A program made the position numbers and the translations under genes. The notes beneath the pieces were generated by a model. It ran no database searches, was not told the origin of the DNA, and was given only the letters and a program-made list of their open reading frames with translations. From the IMG/VR virus record IMGVR_UViG_3300028832_000117, positions 34,312 through 98,311 of that record: a stretch of 64,000 nt of DNA; one strand, 5' to 3'. Shown one piece after another: positions 25,068-45,889 of the stretch. This DNA comes from a virus (Duplodnaviria; Caudoviricetes). Each line of letters starts with the position of its first letter. The first letter of the stretch is position 1.

Positions 25068-27347
25068 TCACTTGCCCTTTCTCTTACGACCAAGCTTGAA
25101 CCGCGTTGGCAGTACTCCAATCGTCAGCTCCGCGGCCGGAATCTCGACAGCATCGGAGGTCAGTCCTCCGGTTCCATCACCGTAGAAGCGGGCATCGGAG
25201 GGGATACCGTGTCTGCTCAACGACCCGTTCAGAAAACGGGCCCCGTTCTCCATGAGTGCAAGGGCAGCACGCGTGGTGCCCTCTTTGCGGGCTATGACCC
25301 CAAACCTGGGCTCAGATCTCTCCGTGTCATACCAGTTCGTCCCCGGCCCGGTGCCCCACACGTTCCTCGTAAATACATGCGAGGTGTTCGTCAGGGTACC
25401 AAGATTGGTATAGCTGTCCTTCATGCTCACGTTGGCCGGGTTGTTGCGCTTGCGGTCAGTGTCATTCGCATGGACAATGAGTCGGGCCTTGTGCCCGTTG
25501 ATGATTGCCTGCACCGGCAGGTTGCCTTGGTCAAGGGCGCTTTCTCCGGACATTCCGTAGAACACCTTGCCAAGGCCCTCAGCGTCTCCCGACGCCGACG
25601 AAGCTCTACGCCACATCTCACGCAAAAGGTTCTCACGTACTTCAGCATCGGGGTGCCCGGCGCGCGCGGACACTACATCCGGAGTCATGACGAACAGGCT
25701 TCCATTCCACTTCCCGGCATACCTGACGTCGTCTCCTTGCGCATACTTGGACTCTACGGAGAAGGTGGGGTGGTTAGGCTTCTTGTATTTGTCTACAAAA
25801 TGCGTGCCGTCCTTAATGCCTGTCTTGATGGTTTCCGGGTCCAGCCAATAGCCTCGTAGATCGTAGTCATGCTCGGACTGCAACAACTCGGGCAGGGTCC
25901 TCCGCCAGGCCTGATACTCGGCTTCACGCTCTGTCGGGACTTCCGTGTCATAAGTCTTTCTCGTCGGCTTCGCCTTAGCCGCCTGCTGTGGCGCCGCTTC
26001 GTCCACCATACTCCCGTCTTCCAAATCATAAAACCCTGCGGCCTTCGGGTTCGCCTTGAAGAACTCCACGTCCTCCGGAGTGTAGTCCTCGGTCCTTTGC
26101 ACGACGGGGTAGCCGAAGATCGACTCGGGGACCTTGTCGGATGCGAGGAAGTTCCTGAAGTTCCTGTGGCGGCTGTCGCCGCCCTTGCCGGCCTGCTGCA
26201 CGGCGACGCTCGCCGAGTAGGCCCCGTTCGCGCGGACGACGTTCTGTCCGCTGTCGAGATGGTACATGAGATCCACTCCTCCCGGTTCCACCGGTTTGAT
26301 TCCGAAATAGGGGATGTCGCGGCCGATGTTGTAGGTCCTGTCGTACGTGCGGTACTCCGCCTGCGACAGCTCCCTCCCCGGCAGCAGCTTGCCCGCCGCG
26401 TCGCGCATCACCTCGTGGTGGTCCGTTACGCGCATCACGGGCGTCACGGGCTTCCCGCGCACCGTGTACGGAGCGCCGAGGAACGTGAGCGACTGGTACG
26501 GAAGATACCCGTCGTTGTACACGTCGTAGAGCCTGGGGTCCTTGACGAACCTGTCGCGGGACATCGCGGACGCGTGGTTCGGTGAGAACGTAACGTCGCC
26601 GAGGCCCCTGGTCCGCATCATGAACTTCGTGCCGACCGGCTCGCCGACGACCGTCGCCGCGTCCCCCTTCGCGAGGACGTCGTACGACTTGAGGTTCGCG
26701 TTGTCGTAGAACCTCCTGCCCGCGCGGTGCGACTGCAGCGTGGCGTTCAGGTCCGCGACGTCCTTCTCGTACATCCAGTACATCCAGTACGGGTTCGCCG
26801 CGTCGTTGAGCTTGCGCACGGCCTCCTGCTTCACCCTGAGCGGGGCGTTCGCGGCGTCGATGCTGGAGGCGACGGCCGGGATGTCGCTCAGGGCGATGCG
26901 CTGTCCGTTGGGGAGCGGGACGCGCTCGCTGCGGTACAGCTTCACGTCCGCCTCGCGCGGAAGGAGGACGCGTCCGTCGTCCGTGACGAGGATGAGGTTC
27001 CCGGGGCTGTTGGAGAACATGGACTTGGGCGCAGCCACCACGGATGACGCCGCCTGCCTGTTCTGCAGCGGGACCGTGGCGCTCCCGAGGAAGCGCTTGT
27101 CCACGATGCGCGGACCGCGGACCGGATGCGGGTTGAACCTCATCCGCCCGACGGCCGCCGCGGGTCCCGCGGAGAGTCCGTACTGCGACGCCTCCTCGGC
27201 GAGGGCCATCGCCCTCCCGAGCTTCGTCGGGTTCTCGGGCGTCCCGAACAGCGGGTTGAGCGCGGCCAGCACGCCCTTCCGGACCGCCTGGCCGACCCGG
27301 GCGAACCCGGGCACCTCCTTCACCGGTTGCGATGCTGCGTATGCCAT
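25068..27347 (-). CDS. Mosaic multi-domain protein (putative internal virion protein)
   Basis: TGATG-coupled to the giant gene; DYDLRGYW...KKPNHPTFSVESKY module. Confidence 0.7.
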   Translation of the reverse strand: MAYAASQPVKEVPGFARVGQAVRKGVLAALNPLFGTPENPTKLGRAMALAEEASQYGLSAGPAAAVGRMRFNPHPVRGPRIVDKRFLGSATVPLQNRQAASSVVAAPKSMFSNSPGNLILVTDDGRVLLPREADVKLYRSERVPLPNGQRIALSDIPAVASSIDAANAPLRVKQEAVRKLNDAANPYWMYWMYEKDVADLNATLQSHRAGRRFYDNANLKSYDVLAKGDAATVVGEPVGTKFMMRTRGLGDVTFSPNHASAMSRDRFVKDPRLYDVYNDGYLPYQSLTFLGAPYTVRGKPVTPVMRVTDHHEVMRDAAGKLLPGRELSQAEYRTYDRTYNIGRDIPYFGIKPVEPGGVDLMYHLDSGQNVVRANGAYSASVAVQQAGKGGDSRHRNFRNFLASDKVPESIFGYPVVQRTEDYTPEDVEFFKANPKAAGFYDLEDGSMVDEAAPQQAAKAKPTRKTYDTEVPTEREAEYQAWRRTLPELLQSEHDYDLRGYWLDPETIKTGIKDGTHFVDKYKKPNHPTFSVESKYAQGDDVRYAGKWNGSLFVMTPDVVSARAGHPDAEVRENLLREMWRRASSASGDAEGLGKVFYGMSGESALDQGNLPVQAIINGHKARLIVHANDTDRKRNNPANVSMKDSYTNLGTLTNTSHVFTRNVWGTGPGTNWYDTERSEPRFGVIARKEGTTRAALALMENGARFLNGSLSRHGIPSDARFYGDGTGGLTSDAVEIPAAELTIGVLPTRFKLGRKRKGK

Positions 27348-30300
27348 CAGTAGTCGTATCCTTTCCGAATCCCGAACGGGTCGCGGAATCCTTCGCGCGC
27401 CGCCTCGGTCACCTGTGTCATCTCGGAGTCTGTGATGCCTTTGCGCTGGGCCTTGAGCTTGTCCTTGAGCGACCTGACCGCGTCGACCTTCCTGGTGCCG
27501 AGCCTGTTGATGGCACGCACCACCTTCGCCACCTCGCGGACGTCGTAGTCGTCGCCGGGCTTCTCCGGGAGGAGCTCGAACAGCCTGCCGTAGAGGCGCG
27601 GAAGCACCTGCCCACAGGCCGTATTGAGCTGCTGCTGGGGGTCGAACCCGTTGGTCTCTGCGTCGTGCAGTATGTCGGCGACCGGGTTCACCGGTCGCTT
27701 GGACTTGCGGCCCTTGACCGTGAAGCCTCCGTATGCGTAGCCCGCGCGGTCGTTGTTCGCCCACGCCGTCAGCGCCTTGACGAGCCTCTTCTGCACCGCC
27801 GTCTGGGACGCGCCCATCTGGACGGGCCCGAAGATCGGAAGGGCACCCGCGTCGCCGTTCCTGTGCATGCCTCCGACGGAGAACGGCAGGAACGCCTCGG
27901 CGAGGTTGAAGAGCGCGGAGTCCGTCGTCGGCGAGAGCCACCTCTCGAACTGGCCCTGCTCCTCCCACGGGAGCGAACGCTCGATGTAGCCGAGGCTCCT
28001 GCCGACCACACCCTCCAGGACGCGCTGCAGCGGCATGGAGAGCTTGGAGTTGAACTGGGCCCACGCGTCGTCGAACCAGCGGAAGAACTCCCAGCCCTGC
28101 TTGCCGAAGTGCATGTAGTAGTGGCGCGCCTTGGTCGTGCGGTTCGCAGGGTCGCGGCCGGTGTAGAGCGGAACGATGCTCGGAGTGAGCGCACCGGTGC
28201 CGGCGCCGACCGCCGCACCTATCGCCGCGGTGAGACGGTTGCCTCCGCCGGCGAGGCCTACGAGGCCTCCGGCGATCGCGCCGAGCGAGGTGGCGAGCGG
28301 ACGTCCGCCCTCCTTGAACGAGCGGGCGAGCCCGCCGAGCTTCGTCTCGTCGAAGCGCGCGATGGCCTTCAGAAGGGGCGTCAGGTCGAATGCGGTCCAC
28401 CTGGTCTTGTCCTCATTCTCCCACGTGCCCCAGCGGTCGTCATCGTCGCCACTGCCTCCGAGGGCCTTGGCGAGCGCGAGCGTCACCACCTGGAAGAGCG
28501 CCGGGACGCCTATCATGACGCCGAGGAACATGCGCATCCACCTGCCGGCGAAGTACTCGCGCTCCTTCCTGGACATCGTATGCCCGCCGGACAGCATGTC
28601 GGTGATGACGCTTCCGCCGCCGGCCTGCCACGCGCCGACCGTCCACTGCCACGAGAAGAGCATGGAGTTCATGAGCGCACGGGCCTTCGGGTGGGCCCAC
28701 GCGAACTGCATGGGGTCGATGCCGCCGATCTCGGCGTTGATGTACCTCGAGTACCTCCTGAGGTCGCGCACGGGGTCGAACGCCTTGCCTGCGGCCTTCG
28801 CCGCATGGCGGAGCTTCATGCACATCTGCGCGACGACCGCGAGCTTGGTGGCGTTGAGGACGTAGTTGAACGCCTTGTCGCCCTGCCGGACGAGGAGCGC
28901 ATCCATCATGCGGGCGAACTTGCCTGCGGCCGCGGCGCCCATGCTGTGGCGTATCGCCTCTTTCATGCGCTTGACGTCCTTCAGGAGCACCGTCTTGTCG
29001 GGTTCCATCGGGTTCGTGACGCTCGTGGAGACGGATATGCCGAGGGCCGCCGCCCAGGAGTACATCTCCGCGAGGAACGGATCGTTGGAGTCCATCATCC
29101 GCACGATGTCCTTCATGCCGATGTAGTCGTGCGTGATCCAGGCCTTGCCGCCGAACATCCCGCGCACCTTGTTCGCGAGGTCCGGGTGCTCCTTCATCCA
29201 GTCTCCGACCCACTTCCAGTTCGATCCGATCGTGGACATCGCGCCCACGGCGCCCATCGGGGACTCCCAGCGGGTCGCCATCGGGAAGAAGAACGAGAAG
29301 CTCACGGAGAGCGACTTGGAGTACGAGAGGGCGCGCTGTATGGCCGCACGGGTCGCCGCGCCGCCGATGCCGAGCGTCTTGCCCGCGTCGAGGTAGTGCT
29401 TGAGGTAGCCCATCGCCTCGCCGCCGGCCGTGGCGTTCATGTAGTCCTCACCGCTTCCGTCGAGAACCATCCAGCGATCCACGGAGACGAGCTGCGAGTC
29501 GTCGCCCGGAAGCTCGGTGTACCCGAGCTCGCCGATCTGCGCCTTGCGCGGCTTGCCCTCTATCTGGTGCTTCTGGCGTATGGCCTCGTACATGGCCCTG
29601 GCGTTGTCCACGCCGGATCTGGCCGGATCGTACACCTGGCCCACCTCCGGGTTCATGGCCTGCCACCACTCGGCGAGGTTGCCCCAGAAGGAGTCGGGGA
29701 GCCCGCTCGCTTCGGCGGCGAGGACGTTCGGGTCGGCGTAGTAGACCGGCCTGCCCGTCGCGCCCTCCGGCGTGAGCAGAAGGTTCGCGAGCGTCGCCCT
29801 CGACATCATGGCGTTCGTGATGCCGTCGATGCACTTGTGGACCTTGTGCCCGATCTGGAAGTTCGCGGGAAGCGTGCCGTGCATGCGGAACATGTCGGTG
29901 TCGCGGAAGCCCATGGAGCCTCCGAAGACCTCGCCGCGCTGCAGCTTCGTATCCTCGTACCTCGCGATGATGCCCTCGAGGTCGACATGACCCTTCCCTG
30001 CGTAGCCGGTACGCGACATCCAGACGAGCTCGCGTGCGCGGTTGTAGATCGCCTTTGCGATGTCGCCGTAGGTCGCGTCCGCGGAAAGGACGAGCCCTGA
30101 ATCGTAGGACGCCTTCGCGCCGGGTTCGTACGCCCCGTCCAGGATGTCCTGGAGGAACCTTCCGGCGCGGTGGTCGATTCCGTAGAACCTCGCGAGCGAG
30201 TCCACATCGTCCATGATCGTACCGGGGTCCATGCGGGACAGCGGCTTCTCCGCGTCGGCGGACGCCGTCACGCGCTCCACGAGCGCCTCGGCCTCCGACA

Positions 30301-33300
30301 TCTTGTCGGAGAGCGTGATGCGGTGCTGGCGGTCCGTGCGGACGGCGTTGTACATGAACATGCCGGAGCCGCGCCAGAACGGAAGCGCCGTACCGAACGC
30401 GTGGAAGTACTGGCCGTCGCCGTGCGTGAGCCACGGATGGCGCTTCACGAACTTCACGGCGTCGTTCCAGACGCCCATGAACTCGTCCACGATGAACTTG
30501 CGGTCGAGCCACTCCTCGGAACGCCCGGCGTCTACGAGCTTGCGGTACGTGGTGCTGCCGCGGAAGTTGGCGTCCACCTCGTCGCACGGGATGAGCACCG
30601 CGGCGTTCTCGTAGCGCGGAAGACCTCCCTTGTGCCTCGCCTCGCCGGGGTTGTGCCCGACCACGACGCCCTGGCGCACGAGCTCGCCGATGACGTAGCT
30701 GTCGTACGTCGCGGCGTCGTACACGGCGGGCGACGTCCAGCCCTCATGGAGCGGAGTCCCGCGGTCCCACATCTGGTCGGCCTTCGCCATGGCGGTCAGC
30801 ATGTTGCCGACGAGCCTGCGGTGCACGGCGGGCAGCAGATCGGCCGGCACCTGGCGCGTCAGCCTCCACACCGCCCACTCGATCGGGTTCATGCGCTCGT
30901 TGTTCTCGCGCTTCGCGACGACCTTCTCGACGGAGTAGTCGCCCGCATCGCGGCTCATCTGGCGGTAGAACGTGAGCGCGTCGACGCCCGTTACCAGGTG
31001 GCGCTGGCCGTTGGCGTGCGCCGAGCACATCTTGAGCCACATATCCACGCGGCGGATGTCGTCCTCGTCCATCTTGACGGATGTGGCCTTGCGGCCATAG
31101 TTGTCGAACCTGACGTATTCCTTGCCGTCGCGGCGGACGACCTCACCGTCCTCCATCCGGTACTCGCCCTTCTGGCGGATGACCTCGAGCAGCTTGCCGC
31201 CGGGTTCCAGGCTCACGCCGAGCATGTGGGCGATCCAGTTCTCGCGCTGCGTTATCGCGCTTACGAGACCCTTGTACTCGAAGTGCTCGTCGGACATCAT
31301 CTGCCCGAGGCCGTCGTGGGCGCCGAAGTCCGTACGCACCATCGACCTCAGCCACGCGTCCACGTTCTGCGCGATGAAGTGCGACTGGCACTGGTAGTCC
31401 ACGTACGCCGGGTTGTCCACGAGGTTCGAGTCGCCGACCAGGTGCTCGCCGAGGAACTCCGCGGAGGTCATGTTCTCCGGGATGCCGTTGAGCCTCGCGA
31501 GGCGCTTGGCCTCCGCGATGTCGCCGGCGAGCGCGGGGTGCACGTCGAGCTCCCCGTAGTACTTGGCCATCGCGGCGACCTGGTAGGCCGTCGTGAGCGC
31601 AAGCTTCAGCGCCTCCTGGACGGCCGGGTCCTGGTGGCTCTGGAGGAACGACCTCAGGTGCTCAGCCGCCTTCGGGTTGGCCGTACCGATGTTGTCCGGA
31701 TCGGTAAGGTCGCCCTCCGGGTTCACGACGTCGACCGGCATGATGTCCTTCATGTTGCCGAACTCGTCGAGCCCGCCGTCCTTCGTTCCGGCGCGGAGGG
31801 TCCCGATGACGTCGTTGAACGCCGTCATGCCCTGGTCGCGGCGGAACTGCGACATCCTGGTCGGGTCGCCGACGATGTCGTATATGGCGTCGAGCTGGCC
31901 GAGTATCATCTTGAGCTCCGCCTTGGACGCGCCGCTCGGCGACGCATTGTACAGCTCCGCCACGCGGTCGCGTGCGGACGTAACCATCTCGGACGGGGCC
32001 GTCGGATTCGTCGAGAGCACCCATGCGGACACCTGGTACTGGGACGCGTGGCGCGCGGCCTTGCCCGACGCGGTGTTGCTGCGCCTGTCGTTGGTGAATC
32101 CAGACTCGATGTACTGGTGCATCACGAGCGCGGCGCGGTAGGCGAGCGAACCCATGATCTCCTTGTTGGAGAGCGACTTCGCGGCCTCGGGGTTCACCGC
32201 GGCGAGCGCCTTGCGGAGGCCGTGCAGGACCGCCTGGCGGCGGAGCCCGGCGTCCGTACCGGACGACGCGTCGTTCGCCGAATAGCGGCTCACCACGTAC
32301 TCCAGCGGTCCGTCCCATGCGCCGGACTCGCGGAGCCCGTGCTCGAGCGCGGCCTGAATGGACGCCGACGTGCGGTAGAAGAGGTTGTTGCTGACGAGAG
32401 GCGAGACGACCTTCGAGATCTCCTCGGCCACGCCGTCGCGCGGAGGCTCGACCGTGAAGTCCCACCCCTCGACCGCCTTCTCCTCCGGGACGGGCAGGCC
32501 GAGAAGCTGCGCCATCTCGGCGCGTACGCCCGCAAGCCTCTGGAGGCGGATCGCCAGGGACGCCGCGTTCGACTCGGGATCCTCGATCATCTTGACGATC
32601 TTGCCGGCCAGCTGCGCGGATCTCTTCTCGATATCCTCCGTCAGCGCGGTCGCGGCCTCGGGCTGCTCCTCGTAGTCCAGGCGTGCGGCGCGCGGTGCAA
32701 CCCCCACGACCTGCTTCGCGGCGTTCGCCTCCAATGCGGACCGCGGGGTCTTCGGGGTGCGGGCCATCGCGAACTCGCGGCGGATGGCGCCCGCAGCCGA
32801 CGCGGACTCGAGCTGCGCCTCGGAGAGGCGCGCTGAGGACGGCTGCGCGATGCCGTGCACCATCATGCGGAAAAGCGTCTCCTCCCCGCCCCTGTCGCCG
32901 TACGAAAAGCCCTGCTTCAAGGCCGCAAGCAGCCCCTTCAGGAAGTCGAGTATGCGGCGGAACACTCCGCGCACCTCGTCGGCGGCGTGGTCGGTGTTGC
33001 CCTCGACCCACTTGCGGAACGACTCGGCGGCCCTCTCCTCGTTGAACCTGTGGCGACCGGACGGGTCCTCGCCGAAGGTAGCGGCGAGCTGCCTGTAGTC
33101 CTCTTCGCCGAACAGGCCGAAGGACTCGAACATGCGCATCATCGAGTGGAAATACTCGTGGTACGCCTTGGTGCCCGACGCGGTGGACAGCGATATCCTG
33201 CCCGCAAGCGTCGCGAGACCCTTGGCGTTCACGGACCACGCGACCTGGCTGGACGTCGCGCCGCCGAGCCCGTACTTCCGGACGAGCGCACGGCGCACGT

Positions 33301-36300
33301 CGCGGGGGAGCGACATGAACTGGCTTGCGGAAATGCCAAGGTCCACGGCGGCCGTCAGCGATGTCGCGTAGGCGACGGAGTCGGCCAGCCTCTCGACGTC
33401 GTCGTTCGACTCGAGGAGCGGATTCGCGGAGACGTCCACGACGATGGACACGGCCTTGCCCGTACCGGCATCGCCGCGCAGGTTGCCGCGTATCGTGAAC
33501 ACCGTCCCGCCGTTGTACTCGACGGACGCCCACGAACCGAGCAGCGAACCGAACGCAAGCGCGATCTTGGCGACGTCCTTGTCGTACTTGCCGTGGGCTT
33601 CGCGCGCCTCGCGCGGCTGTGCCGGGGCGACCGGAACGGAGGAGCGCACGACGCCGAGCGCGGCCTCGAACGCAGGATCGAACACATCGACGAGGTTGCG
33701 GTTCCCCGGGTTGCGGCGGTACTCCCTCCTGCCGGCCCCGCCGCGCAGCTTGTTGCGCGTCTGGTCGTCGGCGGGCTGATCGGCGATGTCGTAGGAATCC
33801 TGGGGCACCACCTTGTCCTCCGCGTTCGGCCTGTACGTCTCGGTCTCCCAGTTGGTGCCGACCATCAGCGGAAGGCACGGAGCCTGCTCCGAAATGCGAC
33901 GCAGGGTCGCCTCCCCCGAGGACAGCGCCGAGTAGTACGCCGACGGGAGACAGCTGAGGAGCGACGTGCTCGCCGCCGACGGTGCGCCGGCCATGCGGGA
34001 CGTCATGAGGGTGTACGCGGGGAGCAGCGCACCAAACAGGACAGCCGGAGTGACCTCCTCGTCCCCGAGCGCCTGCCATGCACGCTCGATCGTCTGCAGG
34101 CGCCTCTTGTCCATCGGAACACGCTTGATGTCCTCCAGGGTCTTCGGACTGGTCTTGGAGAACTCGCCTACGTACCTGAGCAAGGCGGCGCGCGACAATA
34201 CGAACGAACCGCCGTCAAGCCTGCCCTTCGATGTGGCGACGAAGCGCTTGCCCGCGAACGCCTGCCCGCGGATCACGCGGTCGAACATCTCGCGGACCTT
34301 GTCGAGCGACATCTGGTCGTTGGCGCGGAACGCGGGGGCGAGACGCCTGAGCTCCGCTGCCGCCGCACCGTAGTCGGTCTTTCCGCCTGTGAACGCGGTG
34401 TCGGGGGCGGAACGCACGAAGACCGCCGCGCGGTTCATCTCGTCGGACGCGAACTCCGTCGAGGTCACCATCAGCTCGTAGGCGATGGACATGAGCGACT
34501 CCACCGCCAGACGCGCCGCGATCGGCGCAGGTGTGAAGTTCCGGCTCCCGGTCACCTGGGTCTGCTGGCGCTGACGGATCAGCAGCTGGTTGAGCTGGGT
34601 CTGTGCCTTGATCTTCTCAGGCCCGGGCTTTGCCATCACGAATGCACGGCGCGCCTTGGCGACCTCGACGTCGAGCCCGCTCGCCGGTCCGGACGCGGCC
34701 TGTGCCTCCTGTATCCGTCCGGCCATGGACTTCATCAGACCGTATACCATGGTACCGGACAGCCTCTCTCCCTTAGCCATCGGGATACCGGCAAGCACGT
34801 CATCGACCAGACCGGAGAAGAACGCCGCGAGGTACGGGACCTGCTGCTGGTTGTACTGCAGCCTCAGAAGGTCGTACGCCCCGATCGTATCCTTGGCCAG
34901 CAGCCTGCCGACGACCTCACGGTTGTCGGCGTAGAAGGCGTTCGCCCTGTCGAGCAGCACCTCGCGGTTCTGCGCCGCCCTCACGGCACGTGCGGCGACG
35001 GTGGCCAGGTCCTGCCCGACCTCGTACATCCACATCGTGGCGTTGTGCATCCTCGAAAGGTCCGCGGCGGACACGGCGCCCGAAAGCGAAGGCTTGCCCG
35101 CCAGCGCCTTCCGGAAGTTCGTATACGTCTCGCCGATGCGCTGGGCCGTTGCCTGGGCGTTCGGCGCGCCAGGATCAGCCGTCAGGTAATTGAGGGACTG
35201 CTCGATCGAACGGGCACGGGTAAGCAGGCTGCGGCGGGCCGTCCACTGCGCGACCTTCATGCCTTCAAACGCCAGGGACATGGCCTTGCGCACCTTCTCG
35301 ACCTGGTCGTCCTTGAGGACGGTACCCATCTTAAGTCTCCACGCGGACAGATCGCCGACCTTGCGGGCCTCCATCGCGTTCAACCCCTCGACACCGTGCA
35401 GACCGTGCACGACCGCGCTGTACAAAAGACCCATGGCCGAGTTGCGTCCCGAATCTCTCGTAAGCATGTCCAGAAGCGTTATGCCACCATTGTCGCAAAT
35501 CGCCTTTCCAACGATCGCTCCGAGCGTCTTCGTGTCGGACGGGACGGTTTCCAAGACCCTCCGGTCCCCGTCTCTGACCTCTTCGACGCCCACGGACTCC
35601 ATGAACGCAGATTTGGACCAGCGGTCGCCGAGAAGGAACGAATGCGTGATAAGGTCATGGATCTCACCATCGTCCCTGCTGGAGTTGCGAAGCATCCAGT
35701 AACGCGGGCCATGTCTACGAATGTTGGACGCATACGACTTGAGGATCTCTTCAAACTGGATATCCGTGACCGGGAGACGCTCCGGGTACATGATTAGCTC
35801 CGTGATGACGGAGTCCATCATGCCGCGCGTCCATCCGAGTCGTCCGCAAACCTGCTCTTTGATGTCGTCGAACGTCGCGTTGGAGAGGCCGTCCACATGG
35901 TACATGAAGCGCAGCCACTGCTGTCCGCTTATCGGGCCCAGCAGGCTGGCGAGGTCGGTGTTGCGCTCGAAGTCCCCGGAGAACGAACCGAGGGCCCACG
36001 CCATGTGGAGCGTACGGGCCAGGCTCACCATCACACCGCGGGCGTCGCCTGCATCCATTGCGGACGTGGCGATGGCCATGGCAAGCCTGGGGTCACCCAG
36101 CGTACCGTTGGAGCCGTCGGGCCTGATGACCTCCGGGAGGCCCTCCTTGAGGAGCGCCTTCTTGGACCCCGTCGGAAATGCCTTGGTGGGCGATGAAGCG
36201 ATGCCATCGATGAACTTGGCGCGTGGCGCGTTATCAGTCGCTCCAGGCGCGGGACGACGAACGCTCCTAACGGTGTACCTGTCCTCGACAACCCCGTCGA

Positions 36301-39300
36301 CGGGGAGCTGGCGTGCGAGCGTGAACAAAGAACGCACGAACGAGTTGGACACGCGCTTGCGTGCGATATTGGATATGCGCAGATACGTGTCGGGGGTGTC
36401 GTCGGCGATGTCCACGACCGTCTCGTCACCTGTATCCGAGATCCTGAGACGCTCGAGATAGCCATCCGTCGCACACTGCGCCAGATAGGTGCGACGCGGG
36501 TCCTTCTCGTTCCTCGGGCACTCAGGCAAGTTGGCGTACCGTACGGCGCCCTTCGCATTCACGCTGAACATGTAGAGCTTCGCCTTGTCACCATCGTGGT
36601 CGCAGCCGAGTATCGCGTTCGTGTACGGGTCCGGAGACACCATCGCATCCTCGCCCGGCAGCCACGCACGCGTGCCCTGCGGCGCATCCTCGATCTCGCG
36701 CTCCGTCACCGGCAGGCCGGCACGGACCGTCTGGAGCCACATAGACCCGTTGTAGGACGGGGTGCGCGGAAGGCCGAACATGGTTCCGCCGAGGAACACA
36801 TGTTCCTCACCCGTCGCGTCATTGTACACGAGGTCCTGCCCTTCGCACTGGACAGCCGAGTAGTCGAACGACTCGCTGTCGTCCGCTGACACAAACAGGT
36901 CTTCGACGGAATAGGTCGAGAGGTAACGGTCGCCATAGTCCGCAATCGACGTGCCGTGGTGGTCCACGAACATCGAGGCGAACGACTTGCGCGCGGTCTT
37001 CAGCCCGTCCACCGCCTGCTGGTCCTGGGGGTTCTCGTCCACGCGACGCGTCAGGTCGCGAACCTGCTGCGCAGCCCAGGCGATGGCCACGGCGTGCAGA
37101 CGGGCCGGGTTCTTGCCCGCGCGGTCGGTTGCGCGCGCCATGACGTACGCATTCGGGTTCTTCGCCTCGGCGTCCTTCGCGAGGAACCATCCGTAGCGAA
37201 ACCCGTTATTGGATACGTTGACGTTGCACAGCGCCAGACGGCGATTGGTCCCGTAGAACGCGCGCTCCTCGTCGCTGAAGAGCTCCGAGCCCTTGAGCAT
37301 CGCGGCCTCCATACGGCTGGTGGTGTGCACGATCAGCTGGCCGGTCGCATCCAGCGACGCGCCCGCCGCCACCAGCGGAGCGTCGATGCCCTGGAGCGGA
37401 AGGTTGGCCGCCTGACGCGTCTTGGCCATCATCTGACGCGTCATCTCCTCCACCGCGAACTGGCCGGAGAAGGTTCCGTCCGACGTCACGAACTCCCCGT
37501 TGCGGATGAGGTCCGCAAGGGTGTCGTTCATGCGCACGAGAGCCTTGCGGAAGCCAGGATGCGTATACGTGGCAGACGCGAGTATGCCCCAGTTGGCGAG
37601 TAGGCGCTTGAAGCCGTCGGCCGCCTGCGGGGCGGTGAGCCATCCTCCGTCGGCCAGCGTGCGCACCATCGCAAGGGCGTCGATCTCGTAGTTGCGCGGA
37701 GAGCGTCCCGGCTCGGCGGGCACGTTGGACCTGTGCGCGACGTTGGCGACCGTGTACGCCATCGCGGAGTCCTCGCGGTACGACAGGTCGAGCGACGGGC
37801 CCGACCAGCCCTCGAAGACGTTGACCATCGCACCCGGCATGATCTCGGAGAGCTTCATCTCCGACGTGACACCGCGGGCGTTGTCCTTGACGGTGAGCGG
37901 GCCGATTGCGGCGTCCAGCTCGTCCCCGGTCATCTTGTTGTACTTCTTGAACGCCTTGGCGAGCTGGTCACGATCGTACTGTGCAGGAAGCTCGCCGCTC
38001 TCCACGAGGCTCTGGACGAGCCTGCCGAACACGTACGACATGACCGTCGAGTCCTTGCCGCCGTTGACGACGCGAAGACCCTTGGAGTTTCCGGGGCCGA
38101 TCTTGTACGAATCGTCGTCCGTGAACGTGTCCGTCGAGAGGGTGTCGCTTCCGCGGAACTTCTCGGCGTAGTCGAACACGGCACGGGGGGCCGACCCTTC
38201 GCGGAACGATCCGCGCCGGTTGCCCTGGGACACGGTAAGGGACTTGATGAAGAAGAGGTCGCGACCCGCGCCGCCTACGATGTGCACCTTCTTGGTGTTG
38301 GACTCCGGGTCGGCGGACATGTTGCCGATGGCATCGGCGCCGTACCCGAACATGAAGGTGGAACCGAGGAACGCCGCGTTCTTGTCGGCTTCCCTGGTGG
38401 CTGTCCTGAACACGTACTTCGGGTCGTCGTAGTTCCAGTTGTGCAGGATGTGGACACGGTGTTCGCCGTAGTTGCCCTGCGCGTCGACGCCGACGAGCCC
38501 GGTTCCCTGCGCCTCGAGCGACGAGATGGCCGAGCGCTTGGTGTCGGTGAACATGAGGTCCATGCCGACTGCCTTGTAGGCGGCCTTGGCGAAGACCTCG
38601 TAGTCCTTCGCCCCGAAGCGCACCGCAGGCGGCACCTGGATCATCGTGAACGACGAGTGGTCACCGGAGTAGAGCGGGACCCACGACGTCTTGCCGGGGG
38701 CCGCCTGGAACGCGAGGTCGCACGCGTCGTACACCTCGGTGGGTGTCAGGCTGGACGATATGCACTTGGCGCAGACCGGCGTACGGGCGTCGTCCGGCCA
38801 CGTGCCGTCCTGCCGGCACTCGGCCAGCAGTTCGTCGGTCACGTCCGGCCATGCCTGCCTGCAGATCTCGGTGAACGAGCCCTCGCCCTCCTGGTACAGC
38901 CAGCGGGAGAGGAGCGGAACCATCCCGCGCGGGGCCACCACCACGGTCGACGCGGTCTGCTCGCGGGACGAGTCTATCTCGGAGCGCATCATCGTGCGCG
39001 GCATGGCCGCCTCAAACTCGTTGAGGAAGCTCATCAGCGGATCGGTGATGTCGATGCGCGACGGGGCACGCAGAAGGCCCGTGTTGTCAAAACCACCCAT
39101 CATGAACGCAGCGACGAACGTGGACTCGATGTCCGTACGGGTCAGTTCACGACCGCGTGACGCCAACGACTCCACCGCGGACGCAATCGTATTGAGGGCG
39201 TCGATGCCGCGCTCCGTGCGGGACACCGACTCCAGCAATGAGCGACGCATCTCCCTGCCGGCACGGGCCCATGCACGATGCGCCACATGGGACGTGAGCG

Positions 39301-42300: not shown

Positions 42301-45300
42301 CCAGGATCTCCTTCGAGAAGAACAGGGTGCCTTCCTTGCGGTTGAGACGCATCAACTTGGCCAAACGGAAGATCTTCTCGTTGCGCGCCTTGAGTCCTTC
42401 CTCGGTGCCGTCGAACCTGAGACGGAGCGACTGGGCGACCGACTCGAAGGCGACCTTGTCCACGTCGTCGAAACGCGCCTGGGCGGCGATGTAGTCGATC
42501 ACGTTGTCCGAGACACGGGCCACGGACCTCGCCTCCATCACGGCGCGGAGCGGAGTCTGGCCGTCCAGCGTAACGCGGTACAGCAGGTCCTGTGCGCCAA
42601 TCATGTGCATGGCGGCGTCGTAAAGCGCCACGTCCAGCATGTCCGAACCGGGGGAGAGCGTCATCGCGGAAAGGACCGTGTTGCGTCCGGCGTCGGAGCC
42701 GGTCAGCCTGCGCGTCATGACATCCACGGTGGCCTTCAAAATGTCGCTCTTCACCTTATCGATCTCATCGCCGTGCTGGCGGAACATCTCCTCGAGGCTG
42801 GTCGCCGAGGACTCGTCCACGGACCTGCCGTCCTCCGAGAGCTTGTAGAACATCGGCCTGCCTTCGGTGTCCACGGTGTAGTTCCAGGAACGGCCGTCCT
42901 CGTCCACGTGGGTCGCGGCCCACTGCGCAGCGGCCTCCTCGCGGAGTCGTCCGTCCGAGAACGACCTCAGCTGATGGATCGCAAGGTTCGACGCCATGAT
43001 CTGGCGGGCCCTGAGGTCGAAGCGACGCTGAGTCTCGTCCAGGACATCTTTGGTGGAGGCATTGTCGGGCATTTCCTTGCGAACAGTCGTGAGCTCCTTG
43101 CGGAAGCCTTCGCGAAGGCTGTCGACCACCTGACGGGAGAGCCCCATGTCACGCGCCGTCCACGACGCGGGATTGTATGCGGCAAGAGAGAAGTCTCCGG
43201 TCACGATCGAACCTGCGATGCCGATGAGACGACGGGCGACCTTGCGGAACCCGCTCTCGGACTCGCCCTCCAGCGGCAGCTGGCCCTCGACGAGCTGACG
43301 CGCCAGCGAACTTGCGAAATCGCCAAGGGCCTTCTGGGCGTCCAGCGTCTGGCGTGCCTCGGCCTCGGTCAGCACCGGGGCCCTATCCGCCAAGCCCTCC
43401 GAGGAGAGCGTGCCGTACGTATCGAGCGGCACAGCGATGAGCGCGCCGGCGGTGCTCTTTGCCGCCTCGTCCACGGACTCGAAGAACTTCGCCTGACGCT
43501 CGGCACGGCGCCTCGCCACATCCTGACGGGTTGCAAGCTCCTTGGTGAGCGCTTCGACCGCGACGTTGTCGTTGGCGGCACGTGCGGCCTCCAGACGCGA
43601 CGTGAGGTTCGCGACTTCGTTCTCGTCCTGACGACGTGCATATTCGAACGCGGACTGCGCCTCCGAATACGTCATCTCGCCGACGGTGCTGTGACGCATG
43701 GCGTCGTCGATGACGCCGAGCCGCGCACGCAGCTCCTCCAGACGTCCGCCGCCACCGATGGCCGACATGGCACGCATGGCAAGGCCTCGCGTCGCCATCG
43801 GGAACGCAAAGCCGACCGCCTCGGCGGTAAGCTGGTCCCACCCGGGGTACAGGCCCTTGATGGCTTCCTTGAGGTTAGCTCCAAAGCTGTGCTCGGCCTT
43901 GTCGTCGAGTCCGAAAAGACCTTTGGCGAAATCGGAGTAGCGCTCTTCAAACATTTCGCCGAGGATACCGTCATAGCCCATCTGGTTGAAGACGTTCATC
44001 ACGGTCTCGGGTCCGACCTGGTGCTCCGCCATCCACTTGGCCACCGTATATCTCGCATGCGTCTTGTAGAGGAGATCCTTCTGTCCACGGTCGTACGCCT
44101 GGTCCACGGTCTCCCTGACAAACTTCGCGAAGTCGGAGCCTATCTGCGCACGAGCCTCGGCCGAAAGGCCGGACACGTTGCCGGACATGACGGCCTGACG
44201 CACCGCGGACATGCCCGCTGCGTCCGTCATGCCGAGCCGCTCGGCCACCAGCTGCGCCTCCTGCCCGACCATGCGCTTCCTGAACGTATCACGCGTGCCG
44301 AACCTGTCGAGCATGAACTTGCGCAGGCGTCCACCGATCGTATACGCATCAGCGCCATCGACCGGCAACGCGGTGCCAGTGGGCGAGATCGCCGTCGCAA
44401 GCGGACGCACCAGTCCCTTCATGCCGAGACGCTCGAGACCGATGCCTCCCGCAGCGAGAAGGCTCTTGAAGCCCGCACCCGTATTCTCGGAAATGTATTC
44501 GAGCAGGTTGATGCCGGTCGCGATCGACTCGGCGTTCTCCATGAGGGCGCGGTTGCCCGTCATGAGCGCCGACGTCTGCAGCGCAAGCTGGCTGTCGGTG
44601 ACGACGCGCCCGTCCTGCCCCGCGAGCGGAGCCACGACGGCCTCGGTGACGGTGGCCTTCGGGAGCATGAGCACCGCACCCTTGACCGGAGCCTCGATCG
44701 TGAATACCCCCATGGCGTCCGCCAGAGCACGACCTGCGGTGGAGTGCCTCGTGAAAAGTTTGGTCGCCTCCTCGGTGCCCCACGACCCGTAGTCCATAAG
44801 ACCGCGGGATATGTGGCTTCCGGCCCACTGCGTAAAGGTGCTGAACCCGTTGGAGAGGGCCGTACCACCACGACGGGCAACCAGCTTCTCCATCTCGTAC
44901 TTCGCACGGTTCTCGGCCATCGCCTGCAACGCATCGTCGCTGAAGCCTTTGTACATGTGTGCCGCATCCGCCGACTTCATGTAGCCGAACAGCTGCGTGG
45001 CGACGCTCTTCGTGACGGCCTTGCCCTCCGCGGATGCGGCGAAGTCCGCGAGGCTCTTCGCACCCTGCTTCGCGAGCGCCTTCTCCGTCAGGTCCTCGAC
45101 CGCTTCGCGCGCCAGGATCTTCGTACCGCGTGTAAGCCCAAGATGAATGCCGCCCTCGGTCGCGGCGACCGCCGCCCCGCGTCCGGCCGCCGCCAGGCCT
45201 CCGGACGCCCACATCTCGACCATGAACCCAGGGGCCGCACGGACGATGCTGCCGACCGTCGCACCCCAGCTGCCCTCGGCGTCACGCTCCTGCTTCGCCA

Positions 45301-45889
45301 TGTAGAGACGGGTCTTGACGAGCTCGTCATCCGTGACCGCTTCACCGTCCTGCAGCTTCCTGAGCGTATCGGATACGGTCACGGCGTCTGCGATCGACCC
45401 TCCGACGGATGCGATCATGCCGACAAAGGGGAGGTCCCCCCACTCGAAGTCGGTTATGGCCTCCAGGAATCCGCGCTTCTTCCCTTGGCGGTTCTTGGTG
45501 GCGATCTCGAGCAGCTGACGTCCTGCTTCAGACGCCTGAAGCTGGTCGCGCGACATGGCACGACCGAAGACGTTAAGACCAGCGATATAGTCCGAAGACG
45601 CCGAAAGTCCGTTCTGCTTGGCCCAGCCTGCCGTCTTGGTGCCGAAGGCATCCGGATCCAGAAGCATCGGATCCTGGGAACGCACAAACCCCGGGACCAA
45701 ATCCGTAGAGGGGGTATCAGCGTAATTTATCTGCCTGCGCTGGAAAGGGGTGCGCGTGTCGACGACCGGCTGACCCGCCAGGTCCGCAACCGCGTTCGGC
45801 GTGCGCATGTACATGTCATAGGCGGACAACGTACGGTTGGCCTCCGCCAACGGATCGTACTGTGTCGTAAAAAGGTTTGTATCTGCCAT
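27347..45889 (-). CDS. Giant (~6,180 aa) polyvalent virion protein with putative two-barrel RNA polymerase and zincin domains
   Basis: Unbroken 18.5-kb ORF; RBS GGAG before ATG 45889; PRTP (~36760), GCDHDGDK (36584-36607), HEYFH (33146-33160). Confidence 0.8.
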   Translation of the reverse strand: MADTNLFTTQYDPLAEANRTLSAYDMYMRTPNAVADLAGQPVVDTRTPFQRRQINYADTPSTDLVPGFVRSQDPMLLDPDAFGTKTAGWAKQNGLSASSDYIAGLNVFGRAMSRDQLQASEAGRQLLEIATKNRQGKKRGFLEAITDFEWGDLPFVGMIASVGGSIADAVTVSDTLRKLQDGEAVTDDELVKTRLYMAKQERDAEGSWGATVGSIVRAAPGFMVEMWASGGLAAAGRGAAVAATEGGIHLGLTRGTKILAREAVEDLTEKALAKQGAKSLADFAASAEGKAVTKSVATQLFGYMKSADAAHMYKGFSDDALQAMAENRAKYEMEKLVARRGGTALSNGFSTFTQWAGSHISRGLMDYGSWGTEEATKLFTRHSTAGRALADAMGVFTIEAPVKGAVLMLPKATVTEAVVAPLAGQDGRVVTDSQLALQTSALMTGNRALMENAESIATGINLLEYISENTGAGFKSLLAAGGIGLERLGMKGLVRPLATAISPTGTALPVDGADAYTIGGRLRKFMLDRFGTRDTFRKRMVGQEAQLVAERLGMTDAAGMSAVRQAVMSGNVSGLSAEARAQIGSDFAKFVRETVDQAYDRGQKDLLYKTHARYTVAKWMAEHQVGPETVMNVFNQMGYDGILGEMFEERYSDFAKGLFGLDDKAEHSFGANLKEAIKGLYPGWDQLTAEAVGFAFPMATRGLAMRAMSAIGGGGRLEELRARLGVIDDAMRHSTVGEMTYSEAQSAFEYARRQDENEVANLTSRLEAARAANDNVAVEALTKELATRQDVARRRAERQAKFFESVDEAAKSTAGALIAVPLDTYGTLSSEGLADRAPVLTEAEARQTLDAQKALGDFASSLARQLVEGQLPLEGESESGFRKVARRLIGIAGSIVTGDFSLAAYNPASWTARDMGLSRQVVDSLREGFRKELTTVRKEMPDNASTKDVLDETQRRFDLRARQIMASNLAIHQLRSFSDGRLREEAAAQWAATHVDEDGRSWNYTVDTEGRPMFYKLSEDGRSVDESSATSLEEMFRQHGDEIDKVKSDILKATVDVMTRRLTGSDAGRNTVLSAMTLSPGSDMLDVALYDAAMHMIGAQDLLYRVTLDGQTPLRAVMEARSVARVSDNVIDYIAAQARFDDVDKVAFESVAQSLRLRFDGTEEGLKARNEKIFRLAKLMRLNRKEGTLFFSKEILAEDADELRMSANGTSTLTAVRQDDGSYAVDFGAKKNAPKERDVRTFTDIEALRTAMAADGYLQDEAHTVLTQAKVIESSDMFWMIRELGLAKEYYERLGDRRSAQTHPMLRRGEDGGFLDQREAEAILAKELAAAMRGKTAAPGSVDRRMYDNLFGENGYMTVGEELLAERGIHKDALRPYTGEFHDYAPSRYTLLMSAGRISPKSADTYVTVDPSVNSDITSGVVNAILMNAYASNGRLLRDSLGNVISDFVADARRIAQAAIVRAQKDGDHELAEQLTWFVRICCDDVDRVVRRNGKTVVSRGTGLSSAGFTTLANAFGLFRATDDATNPMLRALATIAPEVWQSPSFLAFEGLLNTTLGGNALDAAIWEAKPGAKDMYDPSLTGVPQVMALATANVNALRNAVQASLPAGMGYEQFLDAVIQQLTAQSKTGRPAITEEEQAELRARARAAASAHADASQHFSFLGGLISTMKAAVDRKLTVSTSVADFLGEVLNAVANDPNATDAQRTAATKQLGYLRQRSVDASSETAYTQKVDELASVQEKLRASEAKVAELRQKLIDVERRAMAGEPVSDADRQAGQVELADATAELQGFLADFDRVREEATGMPTPPGLHALDLGGTTVEERDTVSEVATELEDDGDATIAHDPNGADVPEAFAREASKREDGFTARWGRPADDGGRRLTPRQAKLAAGLVVRSMVDDIDESSFLARLSQLLPHLIEGERQDILAGFRDLDAARLAAGRDWASVAVVGESFGFEEDEKSDEDRSSENFNERALAEYNSDALTDFTALLRRVAVETNGSIMGFVDVMRGRVRGWDATAPAYELLNGLLNPQLQPGLKSLAQADARHKDVLKRFSGADIPETVDALVKVDPQAAFLVVYLSGLPDNARTRFAGLCSGSVATTPVHSVDGLMSEKSSTPDGKISDTLIGDAFDSLLGKSSHQLQKIAKALRDASKGDTSVSAYRKGDDSLETLRENAAKVAELLAESFGRNNPLYIALTSHVAHRAWARAGREMRRSLLESVSRTERGIDALNTIASAVESLASRGRELTRTDIESTFVAAFMMGGFDNTGLLRAPSRIDITDPLMSFLNEFEAAMPRTMMRSEIDSSREQTASTVVVAPRGMVPLLSRWLYQEGEGSFTEICRQAWPDVTDELLAECRQDGTWPDDARTPVCAKCISSSLTPTEVYDACDLAFQAAPGKTSWVPLYSGDHSSFTMIQVPPAVRFGAKDYEVFAKAAYKAVGMDLMFTDTKRSAISSLEAQGTGLVGVDAQGNYGEHRVHILHNWNYDDPKYVFRTATREADKNAAFLGSTFMFGYGADAIGNMSADPESNTKKVHIVGGAGRDLFFIKSLTVSQGNRRGSFREGSAPRAVFDYAEKFRGSDTLSTDTFTDDDSYKIGPGNSKGLRVVNGGKDSTVMSYVFGRLVQSLVESGELPAQYDRDQLAKAFKKYNKMTGDELDAAIGPLTVKDNARGVTSEMKLSEIMPGAMVNVFEGWSGPSLDLSYREDSAMAYTVANVAHRSNVPAEPGRSPRNYEIDALAMVRTLADGGWLTAPQAADGFKRLLANWGILASATYTHPGFRKALVRMNDTLADLIRNGEFVTSDGTFSGQFAVEEMTRQMMAKTRQAANLPLQGIDAPLVAAGASLDATGQLIVHTTSRMEAAMLKGSELFSDEERAFYGTNRRLALCNVNVSNNGFRYGWFLAKDAEAKNPNAYVMARATDRAGKNPARLHAVAIAWAAQQVRDLTRRVDENPQDQQAVDGLKTARKSFASMFVDHHGTSIADYGDRYLSTYSVEDLFVSADDSESFDYSAVQCEGQDLVYNDATGEEHVFLGGTMFGLPRTPSYNGSMWLQTVRAGLPVTEREIEDAPQGTRAWLPGEDAMVSPDPYTNAILGCDHDGDKAKLYMFSVNAKGAVRYANLPECPRNEKDPRRTYLAQCATDGYLERLRISDTGDETVVDIADDTPDTYLRISNIARKRVSNSFVRSLFTLARQLPVDGVVEDRYTVRSVRRPAPGATDNAPRAKFIDGIASSPTKAFPTGSKKALLKEGLPEVIRPDGSNGTLGDPRLAMAIATSAMDAGDARGVMVSLARTLHMAWALGSFSGDFERNTDLASLLGPISGQQWLRFMYHVDGLSNATFDDIKEQVCGRLGWTRGMMDSVITELIMYPERLPVTDIQFEEILKSYASNIRRHGPRYWMLRNSSRDDGEIHDLITHSFLLGDRWSKSAFMESVGVEEVRDGDRRVLETVPSDTKTLGAIVGKAICDNGGITLLDMLTRDSGRNSAMGLLYSAVVHGLHGVEGLNAMEARKVGDLSAWRLKMGTVLKDDQVEKVRKAMSLAFEGMKVAQWTARRSLLTRARSIEQSLNYLTADPGAPNAQATAQRIGETYTNFRKALAGKPSLSGAVSAADLSRMHNATMWMYEVGQDLATVAARAVRAAQNREVLLDRANAFYADNREVVGRLLAKDTIGAYDLLRLQYNQQQVPYLAAFFSGLVDDVLAGIPMAKGERLSGTMVYGLMKSMAGRIQEAQAASGPASGLDVEVAKARRAFVMAKPGPEKIKAQTQLNQLLIRQRQQTQVTGSRNFTPAPIAARLAVESLMSIAYELMVTSTEFASDEMNRAAVFVRSAPDTAFTGGKTDYGAAAAELRRLAPAFRANDQMSLDKVREMFDRVIRGQAFAGKRFVATSKGRLDGGSFVLSRAALLRYVGEFSKTSPKTLEDIKRVPMDKRRLQTIERAWQALGDEEVTPAVLFGALLPAYTLMTSRMAGAPSAASTSLLSCLPSAYYSALSSGEATLRRISEQAPCLPLMVGTNWETETYRPNAEDKVVPQDSYDIADQPADDQTRNKLRGGAGRREYRRNPGNRNLVDVFDPAFEAALGVVRSSVPVAPAQPREAREAHGKYDKDVAKIALAFGSLLGSWASVEYNGGTVFTIRGNLRGDAGTGKAVSIVVDVSANPLLESNDDVERLADSVAYATSLTAAVDLGISASQFMSLPRDVRRALVRKYGLGGATSSQVAWSVNAKGLATLAGRISLSTASGTKAYHEYFHSMMRMFESFGLFGEEDYRQLAATFGEDPSGRHRFNEERAAESFRKWVEGNTDHAADEVRGVFRRILDFLKGLLAALKQGFSYGDRGGEETLFRMMVHGIAQPSSARLSEAQLESASAAGAIRREFAMARTPKTPRSALEANAAKQVVGVAPRAARLDYEEQPEAATALTEDIEKRSAQLAGKIVKMIEDPESNAASLAIRLQRLAGVRAEMAQLLGLPVPEEKAVEGWDFTVEPPRDGVAEEISKVVSPLVSNNLFYRTSASIQAALEHGLRESGAWDGPLEYVVSRYSANDASSGTDAGLRRQAVLHGLRKALAAVNPEAAKSLSNKEIMGSLAYRAALVMHQYIESGFTNDRRSNTASGKAARHASQYQVSAWVLSTNPTAPSEMVTSARDRVAELYNASPSGASKAELKMILGQLDAIYDIVGDPTRMSQFRRDQGMTAFNDVIGTLRAGTKDGGLDEFGNMKDIMPVDVVNPEGDLTDPDNIGTANPKAAEHLRSFLQSHQDPAVQEALKLALTTAYQVAAMAKYYGELDVHPALAGDIAEAKRLARLNGIPENMTSAEFLGEHLVGDSNLVDNPAYVDYQCQSHFIAQNVDAWLRSMVRTDFGAHDGLGQMMSDEHFEYKGLVSAITQRENWIAHMLGVSLEPGGKLLEVIRQKGEYRMEDGEVVRRDGKEYVRFDNYGRKATSVKMDEDDIRRVDMWLKMCSAHANGQRHLVTGVDALTFYRQMSRDAGDYSVEKVVAKRENNERMNPIEWAVWRLTRQVPADLLPAVHRRLVGNMLTAMAKADQMWDRGTPLHEGWTSPAVYDAATYDSYVIGELVRQGVVVGHNPGEARHKGGLPRYENAAVLIPCDEVDANFRGSTTYRKLVDAGRSEEWLDRKFIVDEFMGVWNDAVKFVKRHPWLTHGDGQYFHAFGTALPFWRGSGMFMYNAVRTDRQHRITLSDKMSEAEALVERVTASADAEKPLSRMDPGTIMDDVDSLARFYGIDHRAGRFLQDILDGAYEPGAKASYDSGLVLSADATYGDIAKAIYNRARELVWMSRTGYAGKGHVDLEGIIARYEDTKLQRGEVFGGSMGFRDTDMFRMHGTLPANFQIGHKVHKCIDGITNAMMSRATLANLLLTPEGATGRPVYYADPNVLAAEASGLPDSFWGNLAEWWQAMNPEVGQVYDPARSGVDNARAMYEAIRQKHQIEGKPRKAQIGELGYTELPGDDSQLVSVDRWMVLDGSGEDYMNATAGGEAMGYLKHYLDAGKTLGIGGAATRAAIQRALSYSKSLSVSFSFFFPMATRWESPMGAVGAMSTIGSNWKWVGDWMKEHPDLANKVRGMFGGKAWITHDYIGMKDIVRMMDSNDPFLAEMYSWAAALGISVSTSVTNPMEPDKTVLLKDVKRMKEAIRHSMGAAAAGKFARMMDALLVRQGDKAFNYVLNATKLAVVAQMCMKLRHAAKAAGKAFDPVRDLRRYSRYINAEIGGIDPMQFAWAHPKARALMNSMLFSWQWTVGAWQAGGGSVITDMLSGGHTMSRKEREYFAGRWMRMFLGVMIGVPALFQVVTLALAKALGGSGDDDDRWGTWENEDKTRWTAFDLTPLLKAIARFDETKLGGLARSFKEGGRPLATSLGAIAGGLVGLAGGGNRLTAAIGAAVGAGTGALTPSIVPLYTGRDPANRTTKARHYYMHFGKQGWEFFRWFDDAWAQFNSKLSMPLQRVLEGVVGRSLGYIERSLPWEEQGQFERWLSPTTDSALFNLAEAFLPFSVGGMHRNGDAGALPIFGPVQMGASQTAVQKRLVKALTAWANNDRAGYAYGGFTVKGRKSKRPVNPVADILHDAETNGFDPQQQLNTACGQVLPRLYGRLFELLPEKPGDDYDVREVAKVVRAINRLGTRKVDAVRSLKDKLKAQRKGITDSEMTQVTEAAREGFRDPFGIRKGYDY

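Follow-up and report, generated by a model that had tools for sequence, protein, structure and literature searches.

The gene at positions 27347-45889 (minus strand) of the window analysed here encodes a giant protein whose core is very likely a two-barrel RNA polymerase. The window is a stretch of 64,000 nucleotides (nt) of the IMG/VR virus record IMGVR_UViG_3300028832_000117 (Duplodnaviria; Caudoviricetes; record positions 34,312 to 98,311), and covers the right end (64 kb) of a phage genome of 98,311 bp, the guanine-plus-cytosine (GC) content of which is 62.6%. Coordinates are those of the window, unless given as genome positions. The predicted product (6,180 amino acids, 674 kDa, pI 5.9) is among the largest phage proteins on record and carries the polymerase in its middle. 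The giant protein is most likely a phage "polyvalent" protein, and we consider it probable that it is made late, packaged and ejected, and that its core would start phage transcription.

In double-psi beta-barrel polymerases, the catalytic arrangement consists of an R-x-P motif followed by DxDGD. The original prediction, made from the DNA letters, had reported this arrangement in an 18.5-kb open reading frame (ORF), together with two lysine-bearing segments. All four motifs were recovered where they had been placed, and the spacing of 55 residues between the Arg and the Asp loop proved exact. Residue numbers count from the first ATG of the frame, at 45922; 11 is to be subtracted for the protein starting at 45889. 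The motifs are as follows.

36755-36766, minus strand: R3053-T-P-S loop of the motif GLPRTPS (Arg codon 36766-36764), counterpart of the R-x-P of beta-prime subunits and RNA-dependent RNA polymerases
36587-36601, minus strand: D3108-H-D-G-D3112, predicted Mg-binding catalytic loop, its first Asp 55 residues from the Arg
38293-38237, minus strand: KKVHIV..FFIKSL, ~500 residues upstream of the Asp loop
38119-38096, minus strand: DDDSYKIG, also ~500 residues upstream of the Asp loop

Judged from the composition of the protein, the chance of encountering one D.DGD in 6,191 residues is estimated at ~1 in 7. Since a lone D.DGD is not improbable by chance, the weight for a polymerase comes from conservation and fold.

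Homologues were collected by a word-indexed search and by running HMMER exhaustively against 1.84 billion cluster representatives, which yielded about 60-70 clusters, none of them with a functional name. Nearly all of the homologues are 6,000-7,500 amino acids in length and are encoded on high-GC metagenomic phage contigs of up to 102 kb; a few entries are shorter, ranging from under 1,000 to 5,400 amino acids. Both PRTPS and DxDGD, the latter singled out in the original prediction as the motif whose conservation mattered, were present in every one of 68 homologues, at identities down to 27%. The loop reads DHDGD in 65 of the 68 and DNDGD in the other three, and more distant relatives (P0102, P0103 and P0106) read R-x-P-S-G-N ... 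G-S-D-T-D-G-D. The His within the Asp triad, initially regarded as unusual, is dispensable, since Asn and Thr stand there in relatives. Five further residues (K2545, H2547, K2560, D2602 and K2607) form invariant alignment columns. Conservation runs over the entire protein; the strongest central block comprises residues 3051-3100, and the last 850 residues are conserved to a still higher degree.

The fold of the core was predicted with AlphaFold2 on residues 2400-3450, using 24 family sequences and no templates. The resulting model (predicted local distance difference test, pLDDT, 84.1; predicted template-modelling score, pTM, 0.86) contains the following elements.

35573-38725, minus strand: polymerase core as modelled (residues 2400-3450), with a conserved block at about residues 2438-3420
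36563-37399, minus strand: second double-psi beta-barrel (DPBB-A, beta-prime-like), model residues 443-721, including ~100 residues of helical insertion
37736-38362, minus strand: candidate first double-psi beta-barrel (DPBB-B, beta-subunit-like), model residues 122-330, strand-rich, holding K2545, H2547, K2560, D2602 and K2607
35993-36091, minus strand: bridge-helix-like helix of 33 residues, model residues 879-911, with R896, V900, A903 and L906 invariant and H907 nearly so
35834-35926, minus strand: candidate trigger-loop region, presumptively assigned (helix and loop, G..SN..FDD.K...C.R.G; invariant columns), after the bridge helix

In a Foldseek search of the PDB, the top match of the model was 6vr4, gp66 of phage phi14:2 (E 1.5e-4, probability 1.00); next came QDE-1, Pol I and the phage polymerases P74 gp62 and P32 gp64. 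The top structural matches were all single-chain two-barrel RNA polymerases, and the best among them included QDE-1 and the plant enzyme RDR2. Of the relatives named in the original prediction, phi14:2 gp66 and QDE-1 were thus borne out as the best structural matches, whereas YonO was not among the matches listed. In a search of viral predicted structures, the best matches were segments of giant crAss-like phage proteins, with E values down to 1.7e-10. Generic double-psi barrels aligned to model residues 443-721, the stretch that ends in DHDGD, and cellular beta-prime subunits aligned to about 440-721. The DHDGD residues themselves (model residues 709-713) form a loop that leads directly into a strand at the end of the barrel. 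A double-psi beta-barrel terminating in the catalytic loop, the absence of which had been set beforehand as grounds for abandoning the assignment, is hence present in the model.

The spacing of the elements resembles that of gp66. The catalytic loop is separated from the bridge-like helix by 170 residues, compared with 168 in gp66 (bridge helix 1529-1559), such that model D709 corresponds to gp66 D1361 at an offset of 652, and helix 879-911 to gp66 1529-1559 at an offset of 650. Alignments of the entire enzyme with gp66 and QDE-1 begin at model residue 1, so that they span residues 122-330 with the invariant K146, H148, K161 and K208 (model numbering), as part of the enzyme and not as a barrel taken alone; the strand-rich stretch carrying this Lys/His/Lys set would presumably be the beta-type first barrel. 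The structural matches and the conservation of the motifs together lend good support to the polymerase core. The fold, the conserved catalytic residues and the membership of a coherent lineage of ~90-98 kb phages are counted as established here.

It could be argued that the barrels are a structural relic lacking catalysis, in a protein that serves only as a scaffold or ejection protein. The catalytic activity is, after all, a prediction in the present case, and the crystal of gp66 has its catalytic loop in an inactive conformation (bioRxiv 10.1101/2020.03.07.982082), so that such cores can be held inactive. Nevertheless, all of the residues expected to bind Mg or to contact the substrate are invariant among relatives that share 27-35% overall identity, and residues 3051-3100 are the most conserved block of the central region. 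This pattern argues for selection on chemistry rather than on shape, and renders a relic very improbable.

Sequence comparison provided no link to known families. Over the entire protein, Pfam, PHROGs and NCBIfam yielded no family, the sole match being a sub-threshold LRV_2, and Pfam at E values up to 10 on the core of 12 family members returned no polymerase family. Both phmmer and the family profile produced only chance matches against all PDB sequences. In hhalign, the family profile gave a probability of 0.1 against phi14:2 gp66 (represented by one gp66 sequence, not by a family profile) and no link to phi14:2 gp076, and hmmsearch of gp66 with the catalytic-barrel profile gave negative scores. 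Finally, neither TerL nor the N-terminal part, core or C-terminal part of the giant protein had a tblastn match among 50,697 GenBank phage records. The sequence family, the central core within a single chain of 6.2 thousand residues, the DHDGD variant and the phage lineage appear to be new to the literature and libraries searched, whereas the kind of enzyme is already known.

The organization of the gene and its immediate surroundings is given below.

45923-45952, minus strand: sigma-70-like promoter between the stop of the upstream gene and the giant gene (TTGCCT, 18 nt, TATAAT, extended TG before the -10 box; 10 of 12 matches)
45898-45904, minus strand: ribosome-binding site AAGGGAG, 8 nt before the ATG at 45889
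45966-49112, minus strand: upstream gene of the same operon (1,048 amino acids), matching no known family
25068-27347, minus strand: downstream gene (759 amino acids), matching no known family

The open frame extends on the minus strand from 45922 to 27347 (6,191 codons). Its first ATG (45922) immediately abuts the -10 box of the promoter, and the ATG at 45889 is preceded by AAGGGAG; the latter is therefore considered the usable start. The gene that begins there is identical to the gene call in the public sequence collection, and its GC contents at the three codon positions (0.64, 0.47 and 0.86) are as in real genes of this phage genome. The 18.5-kb ORF with its own promoter, as originally described, is accordingly retained. 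At the other end of the gene, its TGA overlaps the ATG of the downstream gene (TGATG), which suggests that the two are translationally coupled.

In terms of genome organization, the giant gene is situated within a long minus-strand late operon, downstream of TerL and upstream of a tail-fibre-like protein that is the target of a diversity-generating retroelement (DGR). TerL, which gave a weak match to phrog_2, is located at the start of the minus-strand arm, and the arm ends ~5 kb past the giant gene with the DGR target, Avd and the reverse transcriptase. The plus-strand genes (genome 9.7-49 kb) include a helicase, a PD-(D/E)XK nuclease, PolA and, as read from sequence alone, a nicotinamide adenine dinucleotide (NAD)-salvage cluster. 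The nine structural-module proteins from the gene after the giant gene to the upstream end of the operon had no PHROG match, and no tail-tube, sheath or chaperone family was detected among the proteins of the structural arm.

This neighbourhood bears on the proposal that the giant protein contains the same polymerase but serves as the tape measure of a tail, in the manner of Thermus phage P23-45 gp96. It would then act as the ruler for a non-contractile tail of great length and pass down that tail into the cell, instead of residing inside a short-tailed particle as an internal or cargo protein. Such an arrangement is unlikely here. The polymerase is central and not N-terminal, with the catalytic loop at residue 3108 of 6191, and the structural match to gp96 is weaker than those to gp66, QDE-1 and the P74/P32 enzymes. 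The adjoining upstream gene encodes 1,048 amino acids and not a small chaperone pair with a frameshift, and, as noted above, tail-tube, sheath and chaperone families went undetected. Moreover, by our own estimate (1.5 Å per residue), a fully helical ruler of 6,180 amino acids would imply a tail of ~0.9 µm.

Beyond the core, three other regions of the giant protein were delineated.

33023-33160, minus strand: HEYFH (residues 4255-4259) and EERAAE (residues 4295-4300), a zincin-type metallopeptidase motif, nearly invariant in the family
28457-28540, minus strand: hydrophobic segment of the membrane-spanning type, the one clear case (residues 5795-5822)
27350-30025, minus strand: C-terminal 892 residues, the most conserved part of the protein, predicted to be all-helical

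EERAAE follows HEYFH by 40 residues. Profile searches with the zincin region found no match in the PDB or Pfam, and none of the Pfam polyvalent-protein models was significant on the giant protein. For the C-terminal 892 residues the model was poor (pLDDT 57.8), and a fold search with it returned generic helical repeats only. Look-alikes in the protein atlas comprised LPD38 (for the C-terminal region), LPD1, LPD23 and ART-PolyVal clusters, and are to be taken as leads only. Additional modules were evident among the homologues: PF18760 ART-PolyVal, helicase domains, RNase_T together with PDDEXK, and PF08902. Two of the homologues bear an insertion of ~450 residues inside the polymerase-core region that matches NADAR, an ADP-ribose-processing module (best E 2.5e-6). 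Since this insert sits within the core, effector domains can evidently slot into the polymerase region itself.

According to Iyer et al. 2017 (PMC5512222), phage polyvalent proteins are defined by such mixtures of domains beside virion genes, and the zincin HExxH...E pattern is described for their peptidase. The giant protein shares the strand and operon of TerL and of the DGR-targeted fibre-like protein, is coupled to the next gene, has homologues with effector inserts and has kept the HExxH...E motif; for these reasons, a virion and polyvalent context is favoured. Moreover, both of the giant phage proteins known to contain a characterised two-barrel polymerase are virion components (PMC10770324; bioRxiv 10.1101/2020.03.07.982082).

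By this reasoning, the host RNA polymerase would transcribe the giant gene late, using the promoter at 45952-45923, and the protein would enter the particle and leave it together with the DNA, whereupon its core would transcribe the first phage genes in the cell without needing the host enzyme. Cleavage of the giant protein into working pieces may be the task of the conserved HExxH...E module; of the features analysed, only this motif speaks for the term "polyprotein" of the original prediction. Passage of the protein or the DNA across the envelope may be aided by the conserved C-terminal region with its membrane segment. Virion packaging, injection into the host and early-gene transcription are put forward from gene position and by analogy; from the evidence as a whole, we also infer polymerase activity, a DNA template, processing and the identity of the transcribed genes.

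Several considerations weigh against this course of events. Packaging and activity are predictions, and the neighbouring structural proteins match no known family that would point to a particle type. Sequence methods tie the protein to no polymerase, so that the assignment comes from predicted structure and short motifs, and the first, beta-like barrel is a candidate, seen only within whole-enzyme alignments. Furthermore, 10 sigma-70-like promoters were found in the early region, versus 3.1 expected, one of them perfect (12/12); the host polymerase could therefore transcribe the early genes. A repeated promoter motif of a type other than sigma-70 was also sought in the early region, and none was convincing.

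The same promoters would suit a real polymerase that is not packaged, and which acts late in the infected cell in late transcription, in priming for the phage PolA or in the production of regulatory or anti-defence RNA, possibly on an RNA template as in QDE-1. A host-type promoter drives the gene, a second phage polymerase gene (i.e., a further gene bearing DxDGD) was not seen in the genome, and the best structural matches include two enzymes that copy RNA, QDE-1 and plant RDR2. On the other hand, a multi-domain protein of 674 kDa with a membrane segment, coupled within a structural operon, would be odd for an intracellular enzyme, and its relatives hold modules typical of proteins delivered with the DNA (ART-PolyVal, NADAR and nucleases). 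In addition, if the gene of the enzyme is itself late, another enzyme is needed before it could carry out late transcription. An unpackaged enzyme is thus quite unlikely, and the packaged, ejected polyvalent protein is preferred.

The early region displays several features of note. To the left of the window (genome 18575-18670), a 12/12 sigma-70 promoter (TTGACA, 16 nt, TATAAT) lies inside a 27-nt inverted repeat, the arms of which are 96% complementary and 28 nt apart; this promoter looks to be under operator control. The first plus-strand gene is closely preceded by an AT-rich island (genome 9378-9467) that holds several promoter-like sites within this 62% GC genome; after the island come two tandem 24-nt repeats beginning with TTGACAC (genome 9614-9662). 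The island and the repeats could represent an early promoter cluster or an origin. Within an early gene (genome 14038-14205), a 21-nt unit occurs ~8 times in tandem (six overlapping copies of a 63-nt reference) and encodes an acidic repeat of the D-E-E-D-E-P-L type.

The phage belongs to a recognizable lineage. Of five related viral records, four (90-96 kb, one of them with terminal repeats) have TerL in common at 52-56% identity, and the related loci all have a GC content of 63-72%. Among 185,579 species-representative genomes, the sole relative was the contig CAYPEJ010000018.1 (91,134 bp), which is included in a metagenome-assembled "uncultured Anaeromicropila". Anaeromicropila was set aside as host, since the locus has 63% GC; the 91-kb length and 63% GC of the contig suggest a complete phage genome that was binned with the bacterium, and not a prophage. 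It may tentatively be proposed that high-GC phages with genomes of ~90-98 kb form a lineage, lacking sequence kinship with the Crassvirales and probably with hosts other than Bacteroidota, that delivers one polyvalent protein of 674 kDa uniting polymerase, peptidase and envelope-crossing parts.

Further observations concern the other genes of the window. The DGR target (19229-21655, minus strand, 808 amino acids) comprises a CBM5/12 carbohydrate-binding module and a C-terminal DUF6273/Hoc-like region, and a 378-residue protein encoded just upstream of it in the operon shows a weak CBM5/12 match. In the structural arm, positions 60220-63999 (minus strand) encode a protein of >1,240 amino acids with three Listeria-Bacteroides repeat domains (Flg_new, E 2e-33); the region is distinctly lower in GC (55-58%), and the protein is possibly an acquired adhesin or decoration protein. 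A minus-strand ORF of 1,190 codons (5331-8903) was dismissed as an antisense artefact of high GC at third codon positions, its first codon position having 79-96% GC. The real gene, on the opposite strand (5328-7664, plus strand, 778 amino acids), directly follows PolA and has no family match.

In the literature searched, experiments have demonstrated that a giant virion protein contains a cell-type (two-barrel) RNA polymerase in only two phage groups, the crAss-like phages and the Thermus P23-45 group, both of which were found via the DxDxD motif. The family described here was missed by annotation systems and stems from an uncultured lineage that differs in composition and gene content (PolA, DGR, 63-72% GC). 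It lends support to the idea that two-barrel polymerases delivered by injection are common, yet invisible to sequence searches. The approximately 60 diverse sequences that gave a confident model could help to trace the connection between phage polymerases and the polymerases of eukaryotic RNA silencing, and a precise fragment and three Asp residues are available as targets. If a single 674-kDa protein is indeed delivered, the injected two-barrel polymerase of the crAss type would be an ancient strategy, widespread among tailed phages; one chain would unite what crAss-like phages spread over several giant virion proteins, and would constitute the largest polymerase-bearing phage protein known.

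Among known systems, the polyvalent proteins resemble the giant protein in being very large, multi-domain late products encoded by the virion genes, with the HExxH...E motif and with relatives that exchange ART-PolyVal, NADAR, helicase and nuclease modules. In the available portion of PMC5512222, the only polymerase named for phage polyvalent proteins is of the N4 type, whereas that of the giant protein is predicted to be of the two-barrel type. The virion RNA polymerase (vRNAP) of N4 is described (PMC5512222, PMC13434306) as a giant late product (about 3,500 amino acids) that is fused to an HExxH peptidase, is ejected with the DNA and transcribes the early genes. It likely has the same job and packaging logic as the giant protein. 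The fold is unrelated, however, being the T7-like single-subunit "right hand" as opposed to the two barrels of our model. A match to N4 mini-vRNAP (3c3l) was rejected as noise (probability 0.02, template-modelling score 0.08).

QDE-1 and plant RDR2 (PDB 2J7N, 7Y7P and 7ROZ) are cellular enzymes of about 1,000-1,400 amino acids that copy RNA or single-stranded DNA; they have no sequence similarity to the giant protein and no phage context. Closer in setting is P23-45 gp96, a tape measure of 5,002 amino acids with polymerase, peptidase and membrane parts (PDB 8H2M/8H2N; PMC10770324). Its polymerase is N-terminal rather than central, the structural match is weaker than those of gp66, QDE-1 and gp64, a tape-measure role is unsupported by the gene neighbours in the present genome, and a paralogous non-virion polymerase was not seen in this genome.

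The most extensive parallels are with phi14:2 gp66 (PDB 6VR4), which is found in the particle and transcribes the early genes (bioRxiv 10.1101/2020.03.07.982082). In both proteins a single chain carries both barrels, with similar spacing from catalytic loop to bridge helix, and both are encoded among genes for giant virion proteins, in the case of phi14:2 in a genome of roughly 100 kb. The local motif R-x-P ... G-S/C-D-x-D-x-D-K is also shared: gp66 reads R-I-P ... T-G-S-D-F-D-I-D-K, compared with R-T-P ... L-G-C-D-H-D-G-D-K in the giant protein. The R-I-P of gp66 precedes DFDID by 39 residues, in contrast to the 55 residues found here, and the Gly at the fourth position of DHDGD distinguishes the loop from DFDID. 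Sequence similarity between the two proteins is undetectable. In phi14:2, moreover, a polymerase of 2,180 amino acids is located between separate structural proteins (genes of 5,394 and 4,266 nt), whereas a single chain of 6,180 amino acids is encoded here, in a genome of 63% GC versus 30% for the stretch of phi14:2 compared. The original prediction had set this phage apart from the crAss-like phages altogether. This view holds for the backbone, since TerL and the structural proteins are not detectably crAss-like by sequence, but not for the polymerase: among known polymerases, the modelled core is structurally closest to the crAss-like enzyme, of which it is a divergent relative.

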